DNA from: Escherichia phage AV124 | DNA length: 64,000 nt | Sequence record: OR352954 | Reading direction: 5' to 3' (one strand) | In this document: piece after piece, positions 494 to 60,282 of the stretch | How positions within the stretch are numbered: position 1 is the first letter of the stretch | How the letters are laid out: every line of letters starts with the position of its first letter | The notes under the pieces: model-generated | What the model was told of the DNA's origin: nothing | Seen by the model: only the letters and a program-made list of their open reading frames with translations | Databases searched by the model: none | Position numbers and translations under genes: made by a program

Positions 494-1129
494 ATGGAAT
501 TATGGAAAGACATCCCCTCTACGGAGGGGAGATACCAAGTAAGTAATTATGGAAGAATAAAAAGGCAACGGTATTCTCGCATAAACAGCAATCAAGCAGC
601 AAGTTGGGAGCAAGTATATGAAACAAAGATATTAAAGCCTTCAAAGGACACACACGGTTACCTACAAGCTTGTTACCTTGTGGAAGGAGAGAGGACTATA
701 GCCCTGGTCCATAGGCTTGTTGCAGAAGCCTTCCTTGCACCGCCAAGTCAAGAGTTGATAGATGAATGTATGAAGGCTGGTCACAAAGTGGTTCTTGTCA
801 ACCACAAGGATGGAAACCCACTTAACAACCATGTTGACAACCTTGAGTGGTGTACTCCTTCTTACAACAATGAGTATAGTCCCCAAGATTATTCAAATAG
901 GTCTGGGGATAACTGTAAACATGCGGTTCTTAAAGAATCTGATGTTGACAAAATACTGGAACTACGTGGTAAAATGAGTCAGCAGGCCATCGCGGATATG
1001 TTCGATGTGAAACAGATCACTATCAGCAACATTTTCACCGGAAGGTCTTGGTCTTCTTATACCGGAATACCTCGCAAAGAGCGTAACAAAGGAAAACGTG
1101 CAGCTAAGACCAAACTGTTATCACAATAG
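494..1129 (+). CDS. HNH homing endonuclease (NUMOD4-like N-terminal motif)
   Basis: N-terminus WKDIPSTEGRYQVSNYGRIKRQ matches the NUMOD4 pattern of phage HNH homing endonucleases; C-terminal helix-turn-helix-like segment; RBS AAGGA upstream. Confidence 0.75.
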   Translation: MELWKDIPSTEGRYQVSNYGRIKRQRYSRINSNQAASWEQVYETKILKPSKDTHGYLQACYLVEGERTIALVHRLVAEAFLAPPSQELIDECMKAGHKVVLVNHKDGNPLNNHVDNLEWCTPSYNNEYSPQDYSNRSGDNCKHAVLKESDVDKILELRGKMSQQAIADMFDVKQITISNIFTGRSWSSYTGIPRKERNKGKRAAKTKLLSQ

Positions 1130-1137
1130 GAGATACC

Positions 1138-1365
1138 ATGTTTCCGAACAAACCTAAAGAAGCCACCCATTATTTTATGTATCCAGGGCATCCTACTCCG
1201 GGTGGTAATTGGGCATACTATGTCAGCTTTTTCAGGAAAGTTGCAGGTGAGTGGATGGTGTACACTACCGATACCGACAATGAGTACCCAGGCTGGACAT
1301 TAGCTTCTCGACGCTATAAGAATAAAAGCTTAGAGACTATGATTGAATATTTGCAAGAAATTTAA
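1138..1365 (+). CDS. hypothetical protein (75 aa)
   Basis: ORF with RBS GGAGAT 6 nt upstream of ATG. Confidence 0.55.
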   Translation: MFPNKPKEATHYFMYPGHPTPGGNWAYYVSFFRKVAGEWMVYTTDTDNEYPGWTLASRRYKNKSLETMIEYLQEI

Positions 1366-6112: not shown

Positions 6113-6524
6113 TCTGGCAATTCTTCAGTTCTTGAAAGAGGATTTGGAGAGAACCGAGGCATGGACTTTCCACTATGTTATTGAGGAGGCCTTAGACCTC
6201 AGTCCGATGGTGGTGGACATCTCCCTCACGCAACTGGAGCAGGGTAAGATGATCACTCGCTGCCTGTGTGGTTGCAATGGCATTATGATTGCCCCTGGTG
6301 GGTATGAGGTGCTTCCAAAGCCTGAAAAGAAAGAGCAGATTCTGGTCTGGAAAACAGCACAAGGAGATGTTGTCAGGTTGACTCATATGGCAGATGATCA
6401 TCTCCGTAACGCGATGGTATGGCTTCTGGAGCAGCCCTATTTGAGCGAAGAATACGAAGGTGTTGGTATAACGACATGGCTCAAGGAGATGTCAATTGAA
6501 CTGCACAGGAGATTTTCACTATAA
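6099..6524 (+). CDS. hypothetical protein (141 aa)
   Basis: ORF overlapping the upstream stop. Confidence 0.55.
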   Translation: MDQTNLAILQFLKEDLERTEAWTFHYVIEEALDLSPMVVDISLTQLEQGKMITRCLCGCNGIMIAPGGYEVLPKPEKKEQILVWKTAQGDVVRLTHMADDHLRNAMVWLLEQPYLSEEYEGVGITTWLKEMSIELHRRFSL

Positions 6525-6718
6525 TGGCGATCAAAGTAATCTCCGAAGGTACTCCGTTTACGGCAACGTGTAAGAGTTGCAGGTCTGTGGTTGAATACAA
6601 TTACACGGATACCTATGTATATTCCTACACTGTTGCTCGTGGAATGCGGGTAGGTCATGGTGCGTACCGCTGCATCACCTGTCCTGTGTGCTCATCAAGG
6701 ATCAGGCATAATGGCTAA
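6524..6718 (+). CDS. small Cys-rich protein, zinc-ribbon-like (64 aa)
   Basis: CxxC ... CxxC arrangement (CKSC ... CPVC). Confidence 0.5.
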   Translation: MAIKVISEGTPFTATCKSCRSVVEYNYTDTYVYSYTVARGMRVGHGAYRCITCPVCSSRIRHNG

Positions 6719-10226: not shown

Positions 10227-10568
10227 TTGATGACTGAAGAAGTAACCCCTACCAACGAAGCACGATTCCTTGGACTAGACCCCAATCAGTTCGGAACTGT
10301 GGTCTTCCTCTCAAGTGCCAGCGTTCAGATGGCTGACCATATCAATTCTGAACCCGTCAGAAAAGAAATGGAACGTTTAATCAGTGAAGGCAAACACGAA
10401 ACTATCGAAACGGCGTTGGCCTGGGTTCGTGGTCAGCGTAATGCTGTGATGCAACTGAGCGGAGCTTCAACCTTCGCGCAAAACCTTTTGGCGCAAGTTG
10501 AAGATATGTTGGTTGATCAACTTCTTGCTGTACCAGTTACACAAGCCGTTGAAGAAAAATCTGAGTAA
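10227..10568 (+). CDS. hypothetical protein (113 aa)
   Basis: RBS GGAGGA upstream. Confidence 0.55.
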   Translation: MMTEEVTPTNEARFLGLDPNQFGTVVFLSSASVQMADHINSEPVRKEMERLISEGKHETIETALAWVRGQRNAVMQLSGASTFAQNLLAQVEDMLVDQLLAVPVTQAVEEKSE

Positions 10569-10581
10569 TAAAGGAGAGAAG

Positions 10582-11769
10582 ATGAGCGTAGTAAACGAAT
10601 ACAAAGACCCAATGTCCGGCAAAGTAAACCACTTCGCAAAAGGCAGCATCAAATTCATCAGCATCAAACCCGTGAAGAATGCTGATCAAGATGGTATTAA
10701 GCGTACCCACATCCCTGCACGTAACGGTCAACCTGCTAAGGTGATTGAAGCCACCCACACTATCAGCTTTTTAATGCAGGAAGTTGATGCGGATAATAAC
10801 GTGGTAGACCCACAGAGCCAAGGCGATTGGATTGGTATGGGTGAGAAGAAACTTCACGCCAGCCACACGGATAAGGTTCAGGTCAAGTTTGATTCCGGTT
10901 ATAAAGATATTCTAGCTGGCATGGTTGTATCTTTCCCGCTGAAAGTCTCTAAGAATGGGGATAAAACCTATATCAACGGCACTTTAAGCGGTAAGACATT
11001 CAACATTCTGGATGAAAGCAAAGCGGGCCAAGCTGCCCCTCGTCAACAGCAGTCTTCTGCCCAGGCAGCACAGTCGGGCGGTGGTGTTAAGATCTATGGT
11101 GAGATTACCGAAATCGTAGGTAATCTGGCGACTGTTAATGACGAGAAGAACGGCCCCGGCGGTGTAGTTCTTTCCGATGAACAACTGGCACAGGTATCTG
11201 TTGGTGGACGAATGACTGCCTTTGTGGATATGTCTAACGGTAACATCCTGAATGGATTCAAAGCTTACGGCCCCGCAGGTCAGAACAACGGCGGTTCTGG
11301 TGGTAAAAAGAGTGGTGGGTACGACCAATTTGGTGTTGAAACAGGGCACGCCATTAACGGTCTGAAAGAGTTGATGGGTGCTGGTTATAAAGTGAAGGAT
11401 GAGCTGGAGACAGCTAAAGCCATTCACCGTGCCACATTGGATATGAAAGCGTTCGTTGCGGAGCGTACTGGTAAGCCAGTCGATTCTAACCCGGTTGGTG
11501 CAAGTGCAGGCAACGCAATTCTGGTTGCATGTAGCCGTTTCAATGCTAAGTCAGATGTTTCTGAAGCAACGATTCTGAACGCAGCCAAAGATGTGTATAC
11601 AAAGCTCTCTGAGCCGCTTTATACGTTCATTAGTGAAAGTGCCAAGGGTGCCGATCAAACTCCGTCACAGCCCGTCCAGGAGCGTTTAACGACACCTCCT
11701 GCCCAAGAGGCGCCCGCTATGGATTTTGATGAGCCACCGATGGACTGGGACGAAGAAATACCGTTTTGA
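10582..11769 (+). CDS. putative single-stranded DNA-binding protein
   Basis: Start at ATG 10582 with RBS AAGGAGAGA; Gly-rich linker; C-terminal acidic tip MDWDEEIPF resembling the bacterial SSB DDDIPF tail; OB fold not verifiable by eye. Confidence 0.45.
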   Translation: MSVVNEYKDPMSGKVNHFAKGSIKFISIKPVKNADQDGIKRTHIPARNGQPAKVIEATHTISFLMQEVDADNNVVDPQSQGDWIGMGEKKLHASHTDKVQVKFDSGYKDILAGMVVSFPLKVSKNGDKTYINGTLSGKTFNILDESKAGQAAPRQQQSSAQAAQSGGGVKIYGEITEIVGNLATVNDEKNGPGGVVLSDEQLAQVSVGGRMTAFVDMSNGNILNGFKAYGPAGQNNGGSGGKKSGGYDQFGVETGHAINGLKELMGAGYKVKDELETAKAIHRATLDMKAFVAERTGKPVDSNPVGASAGNAILVACSRFNAKSDVSEATILNAAKDVYTKLSEPLYTFISESAKGADQTPSQPVQERLTTPPAQEAPAMDFDEPPMDWDEEIPF

Positions 11770-54259: not shown

Positions 54260-54334
54260 TGGCTTCTCGAACAGGAATCGAACCTGTACCGTCCCTATCG
54301 TGGGACCGCTCTAACCAAAGTAAGCTATCGAGAA
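54260..54334 (-). tRNA. tRNA-like gene with 6-nt anticodon-position loop
   Basis: Acceptor TTCTCGA/TCGAGAA, D-arm GCTT-ACTTTGGTTA-GAGC, T-arm ACAGG-TTCGATT-CCTGT; stem GTCCC/GGGAC closes loop ACGATA; CCA encoded. Confidence 0.5.
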
Positions 54335-55539: not shown

Positions 55540-56151
55540 TTAGTTTTTGCCAGTATTAACAACTACGCCCTGGCGGTTAGCATCAGCTTTTGCGATTTCC
55601 AGACGGGTTTCGCGTTCAGCCTTCAGATCACCACGCGCTGCTTCAAGCTGTTCGGTCAGCATTGCAATGCGGTCATCCTTAGCCTTGCTATTAGCAGTAA
55701 GTTCTGCAATTGCAACCTTGTGAGCAGATTCCAGATTTGCCTTAACCGCATTCAGTTCGATTGCAGCGCTACGTTTAACGTCGGCAACTGCGCTTTCTAC
55801 AGCTTCAGCATTGTTCTGCTGAGAGATCGCCAGCTCTGCACGAAGGTCTTCAACAACACCCGGTTCTACAGCTACAAGGCCGCGAGATTTCAGGATAGAG
55901 TTCAGAACGGAATCTTCGTTTTCCAGAACTTTGATCTTCAGCTTGGATTTTTCTTCAGCCAGTTTTTCGTTGAACTGAACTTCAATTTGTCCCAGTTCCT
56001 GCTGCTTAAACTGAATTTCCTGACTGATCTTTTCAGACCCTTCTGCCAGAGATTGCAGTTCAGCGACTACTTTAGTCAGACCAGTAGCGGCAGTGGTTAC
56101 TGCTTTAGTGGCACGTTCAGTTACGGAAATTACAGTTTTAGAATCAGTCAT
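55540..56151 (-). CDS. coiled-coil protein (203 aa)
   Basis: Ala/Glu/Lys-rich heptad-like sequence. Confidence 0.5.
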   Translation of the reverse strand: MTDSKTVISVTERATKAVTTAATGLTKVVAELQSLAEGSEKISQEIQFKQQELGQIEVQFNEKLAEEKSKLKIKVLENEDSVLNSILKSRGLVAVEPGVVEDLRAELAISQQNNAEAVESAVADVKRSAAIELNAVKANLESAHKVAIAELTANSKAKDDRIAMLTEQLEAARGDLKAERETRLEIAKADANRQGVVVNTGKN

Positions 56152-56189
56152 TAAGTTATCCTTTGCGTTAAATTAGGTTTTAAATACTA

Positions 56190-56330
56190 CACTTACAGAT
56201 TGTGTTTGTCAAGCGAATCTTTGATTATTTCTTCGGTGGTAGGGTTGTTTTCAAACCATGACCAATAATACCAAAGAACAAGCAGGAAAGAGATCACTGA
56301 CATGATGATGAAGATAACACCGACACTCAT
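56190..56330 (-). CDS. small membrane peptide (46 aa)
   Basis: Below the track cutoff; translated by eye (MSVGVIFIIMSVISFLLVLWYYWSWF...); ATGA overlap with upstream gene. Confidence 0.4.
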
Positions 56331-56515
56331 CGTACAACGTCCTTAATGGAGTCACAAACTTCACCAACGACGTCTGCGGTAGGTGATACGACAATCTCAT
56401 CAGCGGCGTCAAAAACTTCTGCGGCTACATCTACAAAAGGTTCTGCAACAGTTGCAGTGACAACAACAGCAGTACCAACAATATCGCCAGCCATACGTAA
56501 TAATGTCCCTAACAT
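56327..56515 (-). CDS. small acidic protein (62 aa)
   Basis: Start at internal ATG (MLGTLLR) with RBS AAGGAGAA. Confidence 0.45.
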   Translation of the reverse strand: MLGTLLRMAGDIVGTAVVVTATVAEPFVDVAAEVFDAADEIVVSPTADVVGEVCDSIKDVVR

Positions 56516-56642
56516 TTTGTTCTCCTTTTGGTTCCGATTTGAAACGAGAGCACTTTCGTCCATTTAAGCTATCGCCCTGTGCCACTACGCGAGCCGGTCC
56601 AGCAAGAACGGGAGTCGAACCCGTATCTCTCTCATTTCAAAT

Positions 56643-56717
56643 TTGGTGGGGCATGAAGGATTCGAACCTTAGACAAACCGATTAAGAGTCTGCTACTCTA
56701 CCACTGAGTTAATACCC
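56643..56717 (-). tRNA. tRNA-Lys (CTT), anticodon stem imperfect
   Basis: Acceptor GGGGTAT/ATGCCCC, D-arm ACTC-AGTGGTA-GAGT, T-loop TTCGAAT, anticodon loop CTCTTAA with one stem mismatch; CCA encoded. Confidence 0.6.
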
Positions 56718-56782
56718 CGAAATAAGATCCGTGTTTTTAAAGACGTTTCACGGAATCGTCATTGTTCCCCATGCCGGAGGAA

Positions 56783-57094
56783 TTATTTTTTCTTCTTACC
56801 ATTTGGAGCTACGGTTTCAATAACCTTAGCTTCCTTCACTTTACCAGCACGTTCACGTTTTGTCTTACCTGTGCGAACACGGTAAGATGCAGAGATAATC
56901 TGACCACCCTCAATGCGGGTTTCTGACTTGTATTCACCCTTACGGCGATCAAATACCGAAACAGTCTTCTCTACACCACCAAGACGTACATCATGCGGAG
57001 CAGAATGCGTCTGAGTAGACTTTGACTCAAACTGGAAAGGCTGTTTGATAGCGTCAATAGCAGATACTTTCTTAGTAGAATTTTTCTTAGTCAT
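56783..57094 (-). CDS. basic hypothetical protein (103 aa)
   Basis: ORF with Lys/Arg-rich termini. Confidence 0.5.
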   Translation of the reverse strand: MTKKNSTKKVSAIDAIKQPFQFESKSTQTHSAPHDVRLGGVEKTVSVFDRRKGEYKSETRIEGGQIISASYRVRTGKTKRERAGKVKEAKVIETVAPNGKKKK

Positions 57095-57186
57095 AATTTT
57101 CTCCTTTGCATTTTATTTGGGAATTTCTCCCGTTTATGTTCATGAGGATATTAACTCAATCAATTATCCTCGTCAACATTTTTTAA

Positions 57187-57264
57187 TTGGTGACCCCCGG
57201 AGGATTCGAACCTACCTACCTCTCGATTATGAGTCGATTGCTCATACCTTATGAGCTTGAGGGC
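57187..57264 (-). tRNA. tRNA-Met/Ile2 (CAT)
   Basis: Anticodon loop CTCATAA, T-loop TTCGAAT, acceptor GGCCCTC/GGGGGTC with wobble pairs; CCA encoded. Confidence 0.65.
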
Positions 57265-57267
57265 CTT

Positions 57268-57340
57268 ATCGTTCAGAGTGGACTTGAACCACTGACCTTA
57301 TCCGTATGAAGAACATGCTCTACCAACTAAGCTACTGAAC
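57268..57340 (-). tRNA. tRNA-Met/Ile2 (CAT), no encoded CCA
   Basis: Acceptor CGTTCAG/CTGAACG, D-arm GCTT-AGTTGGTA-GAGC, anticodon arm TGTTC-TTCATAC-GGATA, T-arm AGTGG-TTCAAGT-CCACT; 3-prime end lacks CCA. Confidence 0.65.
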
Positions 57341-57365
57341 GGTTGTACTGTTGATGTGGTAGATA

Positions 57366-57566
57366 TTATAGATTGCCTGTTTCATTGTCAACGTCTTTTT
57401 TACTATTCTCGCAAATAAAACAGAAAATTTCTCTTTTAGGACCTATGTACTCCTTCCCGCAGTTAGTACAGGCTGAATGATAATACATACCCCGCAGACT
57501 TTCACCAGGCCAGTCTCTTTCAGAGAATGCGATGCAGTGATTGGAATTAGAAGTCTGGGTGCTCAT
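57366..57566 (-). CDS. small zinc-ribbon protein (66 aa)
   Basis: Start at internal ATG (MSTQTSN...); two CxxC pairs (CTNC ... CFIC). Confidence 0.45.
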   Translation of the reverse strand: MSTQTSNSNHCIAFSERDWPGESLRGMYYHSACTNCGKEYIGPKREIFCFICENSKKDVDNETGNL

Positions 57567-57666
57567 CAGAAGAAATCCCCTCTCCGAAACCAACGAAAAC
57601 ATCTACGTCTTCAGCCTGACGAATTCCTTCGCCGTAAACAATAAAGCCGTCAAATTCATCTTTCAT
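57547..57666 (-). CDS. small acidic protein (39 aa), overlapping the downstream gene start
   Basis: Below the track cutoff; translated by eye (MKDEFDGFIVYGEGIRQAEDVDVF...) with RBS AAAAGGAG. Confidence 0.35.
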   Translation of the reverse strand: MKDEFDGFIVYGEGIRQAEDVDVFVGFGEGISSDEHPDF

Positions 57667-57729
57667 CGTTTTGCTCCTTTTCGTTTTGAACGACTGATCG
57701 CCGCTTCAGCACGGCGTTGTTTGCGATTC

Positions 57730-57975
57730 TTAAATTGTTCGGAAGATTCGGAGAGCGTATTTGATTGTGAGATCTTCGTCATTGGGGTAGAAATAGTATA
57801 ATCCACCTTCTTCGCCGAAGGAGGCAACGTATTTCCAGGCTTCAATTCCAAAACCAGTTGTAGAAAAAGCGATCTCATCCGCTTCATCAGTGGCTTCATC
57901 CAGTTCCCTATGATTCGATTCGTGTTCAATATACTCTCCGTTATCAGATTTATAAACGAGTTTTAGTTTAAACAT
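57730..57975 (-). CDS. hypothetical acidic protein (81 aa)
   Basis: ORF in track. Confidence 0.45.
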   Translation of the reverse strand: MFKLKLVYKSDNGEYIEHESNHRELDEATDEADEIAFSTTGFGIEAWKYVASFGEEGGLYYFYPNDEDLTIKYALRIFRTI

Positions 57976-58049
57976 AGTGTCCTACCGTGTAAGTTGTTAA
58001 GAGTCAAGTTATTTCGATAACTCAATCTTACCAGCGGACACCTTTTTTG

Positions 58050-58298
58050 TCAATCCATGATACCTGAGTCGTTGACACCACGACGGTATTCTGCTATGGA
58101 AAGTGCTCTGATACGTTCTATGAACTCATCATCAGTTTCCCATTCACAGTCATCATCGTAATATTCATCAAGACCATCTTCAATCTCAGGAACCCAAGAC
58201 TTCTTCTGATCTTCATGAACAGATGCCCTATTGAAATCGTGTTTAGCGACTAAATTACGCACTGAAATCAGACCCCTTAATCTGTTTTGCGGTTTCAA
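58050..58298 (-). CDS. hypothetical protein (82 aa)
   Basis: ORF in track; 3-prime overlap with neighbour. Confidence 0.4.
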   Translation of the reverse strand: MKPQNRLRGLISVRNLVAKHDFNRASVHEDQKKSWVPEIEDGLDEYYDDDCEWETDDEFIERIRALSIAEYRRGVNDSGIMD

Positions 58299-58566
58299 CG
58301 AGATCTACATTTCCCGTTTTCGTGTTTACCCAGCGGGTTTCGGTCTTTGTTGCGTGCATTGTATGTCCACAACCAAAGGAAATGATGCAAACACCTGGTC
58401 CATGAGCCTCAAGATCGGCTTCAAACTCCTGTTTACAGACTTTACATTCCATCATTACGGGTCCAAACATTTTAGGCTCCTTAATATAATACGGGTTTGT
58501 CGGTGTATTATTACATGTTAGGCAATCATGTACCGGGACTTCATGCCACTTGCATGGATTTTCCAT
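58255..58566 (-). CDS. Cys-rich protein, zinc-finger-like (103 aa)
   Basis: Multiple CxxC pairs (CLTC, CKVC, CIISFGC). Confidence 0.45.
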   Translation of the reverse strand: MENPCKWHEVPVHDCLTCNNTPTNPYYIKEPKMFGPVMMECKVCKQEFEADLEAHGPGVCIISFGCGHTMHATKTETRWVNTKTGNVDLVETAKQIKGSDFSA

Positions 58567-58574
58567 AGTGTACC

Positions 58575-58600
58575 TATCAGAAAAGCCCCCGAAGGGGCTT
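58575..58600 (-). terminator. rho-independent terminator downstream of nadV
   Basis: On the minus strand: hairpin AGCCCC-TTCG-GGGGCT followed by TTTTCTGAT. Confidence 0.55.
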
Positions 58601-58605
58601 ATTGA

Positions 58606-60282
58606 TTACAGTTGAGCGGCTGCGCGTTCACGAATCGTTGTCAGGTCTTCATCGACAATCAATTTACCGTTGTAGAACACACGACGCAGTTCATTATCTT
58701 CAGACTGTACTTCTTCCAGTTGGCAATTGTCAATCAGTTCTAACTGACCGAACATGTTGCGAACAACTTTGAGGAAGCCTTTCGCAGATTTCTTACTGAG
58801 GTCGGTCTTAGGCTCTTTGACAACCATGATCTGCTGACCATCAATCACAGCACCAGTTGCCTTCACAGCCATGCCCAGTGAATCGCGGGTTGTATACTGA
58901 GTGGTGAAAGAACCGACGCCGTAAACAATGTTGCTGGATGCGAAGCCTTTTTCTTTCAGACGTTCAAAGATGTCTTTTGCACGAGCAACAGTGATTGAGT
59001 CACCGTAGATCAGACCAACGTGGGTGTCGAGGACCTTGTAACCTTTGGAGTTAACTTCACCACCAAAGATCTCCCACAGGCACTGAATTGCACCAATTGC
59101 CTCATGACGAGTAATCTCTTTATCGTCATCATCTGTCTGTGACAGAAGAACATAACGGTCGGTGTCTTTGAAGTATGCAACTTCTGTCTTCAGTGCGAAG
59201 GAACCTTTGTTATAGAAACCGTCTTCTGTTTCGAATTCTTCAATTCGATAACCAGCAATGATATGTTCAGGAATGCCGGAGTCAGGACGGAAAACAACAC
59301 GACCATCACGTGCCATGATTTCCTGTTTCAGGATCGCTGCTGCTTTGGTGATAATAGCCCAGAAATCATAGCTGTCTGCTACGTAGGAAACAAAACCTTT
59401 CGGGAAAATTTCCGTGATATAGCGTTTCAGGAACTCAACTTCAGCCAGAAAACGTTTCTGGTCGAGGCTCATAAACTCTTGTGTTACAGTATTCTCTTCG
59501 ATTTCTTTTACAATAAATCCGATGTTCGTGGTTGCAACAGAGTGTTCAGATGCAGGAATAGAACCAGCAACGAACTTGCCTTTCATGTTGTAATAACGAC
59601 GAGCATACAGAATCGCTGGGATAGTGTCTGTACCCATAGAGTTGATCAGTTGACCGAATTCGCTCTGTGCTGCGTCGTGAGTACCAGCTTCACCGCGATA
59701 TGCGAAGCAGTGGTTCTGGAATGCAACATGGTCGTTGTTATCACAGGTCGCAGCAGCCCATTTTTCGGACAGCTTGCGATACTGCCAGAACGTCGTTGCA
59801 GTTGTGATAGTTTTCCAAGTTTCTGCGGAGATCACACTTTCCAAGAAGTTAGGCAACCAGTAAAAATCCGGGTGCGTATTCTGGATTGTAAACATTGGGA
59901 TCTGAACCGGAGAAAGCGTTCCTTCTGGAAGAGCACGGATTTCCAGAGGAAGATAACCGAGATCATGAAGAGCCTCAAAGCCCCAGGTTTCTACCATGCC
60001 AATGCCGATGCTGGAGTCGCAAACCTCACGATAATCAGCAACCGCTACTTCTTTCGGGAGGTTGAAGAAGTTATTGTTGAACATGTCGATAAGGAACCAC
60101 TTAATAAATCCCTGAAGGCCAGCAAACATGACACGCTGGTCGTTATCAGCGAAGTGAATGAAGTGCTTCGCGTTACGAGGGGTCATGTTATCCTGAACAA
60201 TTTCAGAACGTTTATCATACATGGAGATGTGTGAAGGTTTGTAAAAGTCAGCGAACAGGATAGGACTTTCTTGATTAAGCAT
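58606..60282 (-). CDS. nadV: nicotinamide phosphoribosyltransferase (Nampt)
   Basis: Start at ATG 60282 with RBS AAGGAGAAA; N-terminal LFADFYKPSH resembles the Nampt signature (LLATDSYKVTH in the human enzyme); size about 558 aa; adjacent to prs. Confidence 0.75.
   Translation of the reverse strand: MLNQESPILFADFYKPSHISMYDKRSEIVQDNMTPRNAKHFIHFADNDQRVMFAGLQGFIKWFLIDMFNNNFFNLPKEVAVADYREVCDSSIGIGMVETWGFEALHDLGYLPLEIRALPEGTLSPVQIPMFTIQNTHPDFYWLPNFLESVISAETWKTITTATTFWQYRKLSEKWAAATCDNNDHVAFQNHCFAYRGEAGTHDAAQSEFGQLINSMGTDTIPAILYARRYYNMKGKFVAGSIPASEHSVATTNIGFIVKEIEENTVTQEFMSLDQKRFLAEVEFLKRYITEIFPKGFVSYVADSYDFWAIITKAAAILKQEIMARDGRVVFRPDSGIPEHIIAGYRIEEFETEDGFYNKGSFALKTEVAYFKDTDRYVLLSQTDDDDKEITRHEAIGAIQCLWEIFGGEVNSKGYKVLDTHVGLIYGDSITVARAKDIFERLKEKGFASSNIVYGVGSFTTQYTTRDSLGMAVKATGAVIDGQQIMVVKEPKTDLSKKSAKGFLKVVRNMFGQLELIDNCQLEEVQSEDNELRRVFYNGKLIVDEDLTTIRERAAAQL

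Follow-up and report, generated by a model that had tools for sequence, protein, structure and literature searches.

Overlapping genes for an acidic micro-protein and a four-cysteine protein in the tRNA region of Escherichia phage AV124

We analysed 64,000 nucleotides (nt) of DNA from Escherichia phage AV124 (sequence record OR352954; the whole stretch is referred to below as the window), and describe here two small open reading frames (ORFs) on its minus strand: ORF-A (57547..57666), which encodes a 39-aa hyper-acidic micro-protein, and ORF-B (57366..57566), which encodes a 66-aa four-Cys protein of predicted zinc-finger type. The window is of the Mydovirus type of Vequintavirinae, and its bases 56000-59000 are 95% identical over the full length to vB_KpnM_NDO71 (NDO71), Proteus phage Mydo, KB57, and others. 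The genes at the ORF-A/ORF-B locus lie on the minus strand within a cluster of 21-22 tRNA genes, and adjoin the gene for nicotinamide phosphoribosyltransferase (NAMPT). Taken alone, two conserved phage genes of this size that encode hypothetical proteins are ordinary, and a preliminary description of this DNA had noted the two only as a 39-aa acidic ORF, with a good ribosome-binding site, overlapping the start of a 66-aa protein with two CxxC pairs. The sequence confirms that description. What the description overlooked is of greater interest, namely that the acidic ORF is one of a family of modular micro-proteins and that the two genes meet in a dual-coding junction, which is conserved.

Two overlapping genes under purifying selection

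ORF-A and ORF-B were identified from the list of ORFs, from matches to PHROG families, and from their patterns of selection, together with alignments and an AlphaFold2 (AF2) model for ORF-B. The ORF-A product, MKDEFDGFIVYGEGIRQAEDVDVFVGFGEGISSDEHPDF, matches the phrog_6828 hidden Markov model (HMM) along its full length (E 2.9e-22, with residues 1-39 aligned to positions 1-40 of the 40-position profile), a family of 39-40-aa acidic phage peptides of unknown function. It has 11 acidic and two basic residues (net charge -9), six aromatic residues and six glycines, and is preceded by the Shine-Dalgarno sequence AAGGAG (57674..57679, minus strand) 7 nt 5' of the ATG, a sequence that is kept in NDO71 and Mydo.

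The ORF-B product, MSTQTSNSNHCIAFSERDWPGESLRGMYYHSACTNCGKEYIGPKREIFCFICENSKKDVDNETGNL, contains the pairs CTNC (residues 33-36) and CFIC (49-52) and matches the phrog_8931 HMM (E 1.3e-34, with residues 4-62 aligned to positions 2-60 of the 60-position profile); phrog_8931, whose function is unknown, and phrog_10481 are the PHROG families of ORF-B. Its ATG (57566..57564) lies inside ORF-A, and the two genes overlap by 20 nt (57547..57566). An ATG at 57602 would extend ORF-B to 78 aa, but this reading was rejected, as that ATG is absent in NDO71, P8734, Ro1, and PVP-SE1; because the upstream ATG is not conserved, M13 of the 78-aa reading is the true start. Fusion of ORF-A to ORF-B by a programmed frameshift was also rejected, the extended ORF-B frame being unconserved in Seunavirus, with no conserved slippery site seen.

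Small ORFs are common here by chance (there are 55 of at least 25 aa in 4 kb of the region), and substitution patterns were therefore used as the evidence for genes. At ORF-A, 19 of the 31 variable sites among ten genomes of two genera fall at codon position 3, the ratio of nonsynonymous to synonymous substitution rates (dN/dS; Nei-Gojobori) against the Seunavirus copies is 0.016-0.056, and both alternative frames are interrupted by stops. Third positions account for 40 of the 81 variable sites in the ORF-B core, where the proportion of nonsynonymous differences (pN) is 0.11-0.16 and that of synonymous differences (pS) is 0.77-0.93, which is saturated. Both genes are thus under strong purifying selection, and the reading frames whose conservation the preliminary description had proposed as its test are conserved by codon-position bias, by dN/dS, and by pN against pS.

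It is extremely improbable that the two are chance open frames or functionless decaying remnants. Such an explanation could draw on the abundance of small ORFs, on the omission of ORF-B from the NDO71 annotation, and on damaged relatives, namely the second peptide ORF of phiTE, the frameshifted ORF-B tail of FENT2, and the 23-aa deletion forms in GAP31 and KP12. However, it is already refuted by the substitution patterns, with selection acting in precisely these frames and stops in both alternative frames of ORF-A, and it has to contend with cysteines that are invariant across ~30% identity and with families that number hundreds to thousands. ORF-A and ORF-B are two co-oriented, overlapping, genuine genes behind conserved host-type promoters, and a 39-codon ORF of a kind sometimes skipped by annotators is under very strong selection.

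Related phages already have both genes in their annotations, as hypothetical proteins. PVP-SE1 gp090/gp089, CPT_Mydo_183/185, and Ro1 gp156/gp157 are direct homologues of ORF-A/ORF-B, in the same order and with the same overlap, and none has a described function; within Mydovirus the homologues are 85-98% identical.

The dual-coding junction and expression signals

The overlap of the two genes forms a dual-coding junction, GATGAGCACCCAGACTTCTAA (57547..57567, minus strand), which in frame 0 reads D-E-H-P-D-F-stop, the end of ORF-A, and in frame +1 reads M-S-T-Q-T-S-N, the start of ORF-B. The junction consensus is GATGA[GA]C[AG]NCCNGAYYTYTAA, encoding D-E-[HR]-P-D-[FL]-stop and, in the +1 frame, M-[SNK]-[TD]-[QRL]-[TI]-[SF]-N, and it is common to the window, NDO71, Ro1, PVP-SE1, CR3, POP18, UPEC06, and the T4-like phage EcS1. 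Because the junction is dual-coding, the predicted disordered N-terminus of ORF-B is largely a by-product.

Inserted genes are bounded by the same junction. Most Mydoviruses have an extra 40-aa ORF between the two genes (METLERMHSLSLRLNDIIVEMKARARQLFPEVYTDERPDL, phrog_34792; in Mydo, locus L002, 3030..3152), whereas the window lacks it and has no insert between 57547 and 57566. This near-identical ORF occupies a 121-nt insert between ORF-A and ORF-B in 18 phage records, all from Klebsiella or Proteus phages, and is found in Mydo and KP12; a copy of the junction lies on either side of the insert, whose 3' end repeats it, and in the insert-bearing genomes the first junction has no ATG (GAT to GAC). 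The window therefore has the wider, direct arrangement of the two genes, which is probably ancestral. A different insertion is seen in Logan contig ERR11042462_6940 (L040, 455..955), where the gene for an HNH homing endonuclease, starting MNDLIFN, sits exactly at a DERPDL-stop/ATG junction, and the zinc finger downstream of it forms an in-frame fusion (P0022) with residues 1-15 of an acidic peptide.

The hyperplastic regions of T4-type phages contain modular shuffling cassettes (promoter-early stem-loop cassettes). As at ORF-A/ORF-B, short conserved boundaries flank interchangeable small early genes and insertions and deletions occur at the repeated boundary, but the T4-type boundary is a promoter plus hairpin, whereas here it is a dual-coding protein junction, and in the ORF-A family shuffling also takes place within the peptide, in modules of 6-8 codons.

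Transcription of the pair presumably begins upstream of an 81-aa acidic gene (57730..57975, minus strand; phrog_5676) that is predicted to be co-transcribed with ORF-A and ORF-B and is syntenic in all of the Vequintavirinae loci examined. The sequence motif of a sigma-70-type promoter, TTGACA-17-(TG)TAAGAT, lies ahead of these three genes at 58025..58053 (minus strand) and is kept in Mydovirus, Seunavirus, and Hena1, while CR3 and phiTE (Certrevirus) carry TTGACT-17-TAAAAT. Conserved sigma-70 promoters indicate that the unit is probably transcribed early, host RNA polymerase at 58053..58025 producing a transcript of the 81-aa gene, ORF-A, and ORF-B, and the conservation of this consensus promoter across genera bears out the earlier assignment of the pair to an early region.

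The strong Shine-Dalgarno sequence would then support translation of ORF-A, and ORF-B may be translated mainly by coupling to ORF-A. Consistent with coupling, the 20-nt overlap and the junction are conserved from Mydovirus to Certrevirus to EcS1. A putative ribosome-binding site for ORF-B is the Shine-Dalgarno-like sequence GGAGAGGGG (57577..57585, minus strand), which lies inside ORF-A, 10-12 nt 5' of the ORF-B ATG, and also encodes the G-E-G of a GFGEGI module; in 10 genomes GGAGAGGG is without substitutions, and of the Shine-Dalgarno-like element only the ninth base varies (G or T).

A second sigma-70-type promoter, TTGACA-17-TAATAT (57363..57391, minus strand), is embedded in the final codons of ORF-B, directed towards the tRNA genes. 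Its -35 box TTGACA encodes V-D (V-D-N being GTTGACAAT), and the ORF-B stop codon lies beside the -10 box; TTGACA-17-TAnnnT is kept at this site in Mydovirus, Seunavirus (except PVP-SE1), Certrevirus, and UPEC06. The conservation of the VD[NK] tail of ORF-B, which might have been put down to protein function, is largely accounted for by this -35 box. A tRNA-Met gene (57269..57341, minus strand) is directly downstream of ORF-B, followed by a tRNA gene at 57191..57265 (minus strand; 42 bits with Rfam) that was missed by ARAGORN and is a tRNA-Met in Mydo and NDO71, both of which annotate two tRNA-Met genes downstream. These two tRNA genes (57191..57341) are the likely targets of the embedded promoter, and an Rfam search of the region returned tRNAs only. 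The locus is thus compactly dual-coding at two places, with the peptide tail over the start of the next gene and the C-terminal tail of that gene over a tRNA promoter, and both distort naive conservation analyses.

The two protein families and their linkage

The core of ORF-B (C33-C52; 57411..57470, minus strand) has the form CxxCG-x4-GPKR-x3-CxxC in alignments and in the AF2 model. C33, C36, G42, P43, K44, C49, and C52 are invariant among 32 homologues down to 28% identity; a DWP motif upstream of the Cys core is common in the family, and C11 is not conserved. ORF-B therefore has the four conserved metal-ligand cysteines of a Cys4 domain, in two CxxC pairs that form a predicted zinc site, and the preliminary view of ORF-B as a zinc protein holds as far as this invariant site, which is consistent with zinc binding. 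The AF2 model has a mean predicted local distance difference test score (pLDDT) of 68, with 74-86 in the core and below 50 for residues 1-11. The first CxxC lies at the turn of a beta-hairpin (strands 28-32 and 39-43), and a helix (50-56) begins at the second; residues 28-43 and 50-56 are the parts modelled with the highest confidence (pLDDT 83-86). The predicted fold appears closer to a treble clef than to the classical zinc ribbon, and we infer that ORF-B folds as one compact zinc-binding Cys4 domain, its N-terminus disordered and its GPKR loop exposed at the surface. In a relative, FENT2 (L016, 1323..1547), a 1-nt deletion shifts the zinc-finger tail, which reads on into the tRNA gene.

In its small size and two CxxC pairs ORF-B resembles P2 Ogr and P4 Delta, proteins of the DksA/TraR type, and generic zinc ribbons. 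It has no Pfam match to DksA/TraR or Ogr/Delta at E up to 1, and its two pairs are separated by 12 residues, as against the CxxC-x17-22-CxxC of those families; nor was a helix-turn-helix (HTH) or other domain found in Pfam and NCBIfam searches. A profile search of 1.84 billion representatives recovered 1,489 ORF-B-type proteins at E <=0.001, mostly of 55-130 aa, with some of 200-500 aa that carry the variant RDWPEDFxHENGxYxCxCxxCxxxFxGHKRRxxCKxC. None of the family has a Pfam domain or an informative name, the source names of the distant cluster members are all 'hypothetical', and tblastn with the broader GHKRR subfamily found hypothetical proteins only. The pattern DWP...CxxC...GPKR...CxxC thus defines an uncharacterised Cys4 domain, with ~1,500 representative sequences and no Pfam model.

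The closest comparison with named proteins is to the 'a-gt.2' or '46.1' proteins of T4-like phages (CC31p053, PG7 CG98_gp054, EcS1 ORF054), which share with ORF-B an N-terminal DWP...CxxC...[YF]xGPK[RL]...CxxC domain (~45-50% identity over 40 residues) and are likewise accompanied by acidic-motif ORFs or tails. They differ in having an extra C-terminal helical region, DUF5486 (PF17588), of which ORF-B has neither the region nor a match (the protein P0025 scores above the Pfam cut-off and the PG7 homologue just below it), and their genes lie beside recombination nuclease gene 47, whereas ORF-B lies in the tRNA/NAMPT region. A literature search on 'a-gt.2', 'DUF5486', small zinc proteins of Vequintavirinae, and phage mimics of the C-terminal tip of SSB (SSB-Ct) found nothing relevant beyond the definition of the SSB-Ct.

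These comparisons bear on whether ORF-B is a small nucleic-acid-binding regulator, acting on the embedded promoter or the tRNA cluster, with the acidic peptide as an unrelated neighbour in a hyperplastic region. In its favour are the many C4 zinc fingers that bind DNA or RNA, the basic GPK(R) loop conserved between the Cys pairs, and the conserved promoter that overlaps ORF-B with tRNA genes coming next. We nevertheless regard this role as improbable, as ORF-B is net negative (-2, counted from the sequence) and has no Pfam match to DNA-binding zinc-finger families such as those named above, the T4-like homologues occur in other contexts (beside gene 47) that have no tRNA genes, and the recurrent linkage to the peptide across two phage families speaks against pure coincidence.

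ORF-A is built throughout its length (57547..57666, minus strand) from modules in the order DEFDGF / (V)YGEGIR / QAEDVDVF / VGFGEGI / DEHPDF, with an internal repeat F-[IV]-G-[YF]-G-E-G-I. In GAP31 and KP12 a deletion between the repeats leaves the 23-aa form, and in P8734 2 aa are inserted. AF2 predicts no stable fold (pLDDT 50, predicted template modelling score 0.15), consistent with an intrinsically disordered peptide. A profile search headed by the 41-aa P8734 variant found ~197 clusters of related micro-proteins of 29-63 aa, mostly on contigs of 140-150 kb and with a few on contigs of 175-182 kb. They share a vocabulary of modules, DEFDGF, [IV]G[YWF]GEGI[RS], [AE]EDVD[VF]F, EEDWG[LV], DE[HR]PD[FL], and EENW[GD][VF], whose order and copy number vary, as in the members MKDEFDGFITNEENWGFGKVGFGEGIRSEEDWGLFEENWDV, MKLIEIIIRQAEDVDFFDERPDLISTGFGEGIAQEENWGV, and MMEENWAFIGYGEGIRQEEDWGVCDERPDLVGWGEG, and nearly all full-length members that finish with an acidic module have F, L, or V as the last residue, following D, E, or G. 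The module-shuffled architecture of this family of about 200 clusters is unusual. Searches of Pfam, NCBIfam, and Protein Data Bank (PDB) sequences with ORF-A, ORF-B, and the long family members gave nothing above threshold. Certreviruses have two acidic-motif ORFs in tandem, the second of which is frameshifted in phiTE (L012/L023, about 1116..1209) into the fragments MFDEFDGFVGWG-stop and VFDERPDL-stop.

One or more acidic ORFs lie directly upstream of the zinc finger in Mydovirus, Seunavirus, Certrevirus, UPEC06, and the new metagenomic contigs L041 and L044. Among 13 IMG/VR loci with an acidic-motif ORF, located by scanning with a degenerate DNA pattern and with flanks of up to 14 kb, 12 have every such ORF beside the zinc-finger gene and none elsewhere in the flanks; the exception is phiTE, in which two of the three motif ORFs are frameshifted remnants of 8-12 aa at the same site. 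The arrangement varies in T4-like phages: in CC31 and PG7 a 21-aa ORF, MFSLRKFDAEDVDVFDEFDGF, ending ...AEDVDVFDEFDGF, overlaps the 3' end of the zinc-finger gene, in PMBT63 a 27-aa ORF, MVNEENWGFIDLDEHPDFITSEENWDV, lies upstream of it, and in EcS1 the 61-aa ORF055, ending ...SAEDVDFFDERPDL, overlaps by 20 nt the zinc-finger start, MKDLISN. The codons of the acidic peptides differ at synonymous sites between the families, and the conservation is therefore at the protein level. We take ORF-A/ORF-B to be a two-gene accessory module that is conserved among large enterobacterial myoviruses.

In phages of the Pseudotevenvirus type, as seen in RB43 (L050, 907..993) and in a T4-like contig of 175 kb (L046, 1140..1311), an acidic micro-ORF directly follows uvsY.-2 (DUF2685), opposite uvsW.1/uvsW. 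The uvsY.-2 product is a small Cys-rich protein, making this a second case of an acidic peptide beside a Cys-rich protein and recombination genes. Two other contigs have the acidic peptide between proteins of unknown function.

With the linkage in view, ORF-A could be explained simply as a leader or coupling ORF, which delivers ribosomes to a weakly initiated ORF-B and whose peptide has no function in trans. The ORF-B start does lie inside ORF-A, GGAGAGGGG is at a long spacing of 10-12 nt, and the ATG-bearing junction is reused for whatever gene comes next, be it the HNH endonuclease or the 40-aa ORF. A pure leader does not need a dN/dS of 0.02-0.06 over its whole length, however, and T4-like phages keep the amino-acid modules despite synonymous DNA divergence, while in Hena1, RB43, and L047/L048 the peptide persists without a downstream zinc finger; we therefore doubt strongly that coupling is all that ORF-A does.

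The natural fusion in P0022, the tight adjacency, and the presumed translational coupling, which would favour stoichiometric co-synthesis, are what would be expected if the two products bound each other in a complex, the acidic peptide regulating, masking, or chaperoning the zinc finger as an inhibitor, partner, or antitoxin-like protein, with the zinc finger the sole effector. This is on the unlikely side, as ORF-B is itself slightly acidic and, outside the GPKR loop, has no obvious charge to complement that of the peptide, either family can be found alone in some phages, and the copy number and module order of the peptide vary freely while the zinc finger is constant.

A possible role for the pair, and neighbouring features

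Neither ORF-A nor ORF-B has a link to a function in Pfam, NCBIfam, PDB, or the literature. The inhibition of host factors, which the preliminary description associated with small zinc proteins of phage early regions, is a plausible candidate role for the pair. The reading that we favour, tentatively and at somewhat less than even likelihood, is that of a coupled accessory module in which ORF-A is a disordered decoy of protein tails and the Cys4 protein ORF-B acts on the same target or pathway. Both products would be small protein-binding modulators, as opposed to enzymes or DNA binders; for ORF-B this is suggested because of its net charge of -2 and the lack of an HTH or other domain in the searches described above. 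ORF-A would be an array of short acidic/aromatic linear motifs, each of about two acidic residues, three others, and one hydrophobic residue, with the end ...DEHPDF-COOH, and would act as a multivalent decoy of the acidic, hydrophobic-ended tails by which DNA-metabolism proteins recruit their partners.

Phage T7 gp2.5 and gp4 have acidic C-terminal tails. These and the SSB-Ct of E. coli share with ORF-A an acidic run, a hydrophobic or aromatic C-terminal residue, and a disordered segment, but ORF-A has no oligonucleotide/oligosaccharide-binding (OB) fold, its motif sequence is different, and its motifs are also internal and in tandem, such that the similarity is one of resemblance only. The C-terminal hexapeptide of bacterial SSB is DDDIPF (PMC5872125), and ORF-A, which ends ...SSDEHPDF with an AF2 pLDDT of 50, fits a tail of this type at the level of pattern only. 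A decoy role is hinted at because the peptide family follows the terminal-residue rule (an F, L, or V ending), because the module is the actual C-terminal tail of a larger protein in EcS1, because the T4-like locations are beside genes 47, uvsY, and uvsW, and because one of the proteins encoded in the window ends PPMDWDEEIPF.

Several points weigh against this reading. The resemblance to SSB tails is a loose pattern match, and many of the modules are internal and so have no free carboxylate; low AF2 confidence is weak evidence of disorder. The linkage is not obligate, since Hena1 has peptides and no zinc finger, RB43 and two other T4-like contexts place the acidic peptide elsewhere, and X20 and distant zinc-finger homologues have no adjacent peptide. 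The adjacency counts use motif patterns from the same family in closely related phages, such that the loci are not independent, and part of the C-terminal conservation of ORF-B is due to the embedded promoter and not to protein function.

If the peptides are indeed decoys of SSB-type tails they would represent a new strategy of phage takeover or anti-defence, and a source of peptide inhibitors of SSB-partner interactions. A more far-reaching proposal, which we consider a rather long shot, is that the acidic peptides are an undescribed class, combinatorial arrays of six acidic/aromatic hexapeptide modules that are reshuffled by module-level recombination and have spread between Vequintavirinae and T4-like Straboviridae. 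They would act as multivalent SSB-Ct-like tail decoys that hijack or block host replication, recombination, or defence proteins, with the Cys4 DWP...GPKR zinc finger as their usual partner and the dual-coding DE[HR]PD[FL]-stop/ATG junction as a portable cassette for translational coupling and recombination.

The protein of the window with the SSB-like end is encoded by a 423-aa ORF at 10498..11769 (plus strand), which belongs to phrog_4477, is of unknown function, has no Pfam match, and ends ...APAMDFDEPPMDWDEEIPF. This end is a near copy of the SSB tip DDDIPF, duplicated, and the protein may be the SSB of the phage, or one of another kind that makes use of the partner interactions of SSB.

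A hairpin of conserved sequence, CGCCG-N8-CGGCG (57699..57716, minus strand), separates the 81-aa gene from ORF-A. It lies within an alternative-frame ORF of 88 aa (57663..57929, minus strand) that shares sequence with the 81-aa gene and whose end meets the start of ORF-A in an ATGA overlap. The basic C-terminal stretch of this ORF, KNRKQRRAEAAISRSKRKGAKR, is kept in Mydovirus and Seunavirus, and 4MG (4MG_088) and FENT2 (phrog_38874) have it annotated as a short coding sequence; either a small basic protein is truly encoded here, or the conservation is that of intergenic DNA that includes the hairpin. Elsewhere in the window, ARAGORN reports a tRNA of undetermined identity at 54260..54334 (minus strand), with a two-base anticodon call ('ga').

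Similar Cys-rich proteins had been pointed out at 6524..6718 and 58255..58566. Both exist, the first (plus strand; phrog_2834) and the second (minus strand; 103 aa, Cys/His-rich, phrog_12146 with an N-terminal phrog_26411 piece) being real conserved ORFs, but the idea that they share ancestry with each other and with ORF-B was rejected, as the two have BLASTP E values of 0.22 and 0.36 against ORF-B and belong to different PHROGs. The ORF at 58255..58566 looks composite, with residues 2-20 matching phrog_26411 and residues 33-103 matching phrog_12146; only its C-terminal 71 aa are annotated in several relatives, and in NDO71 this ORF and the next gene form one fused ORF of 171 aa.

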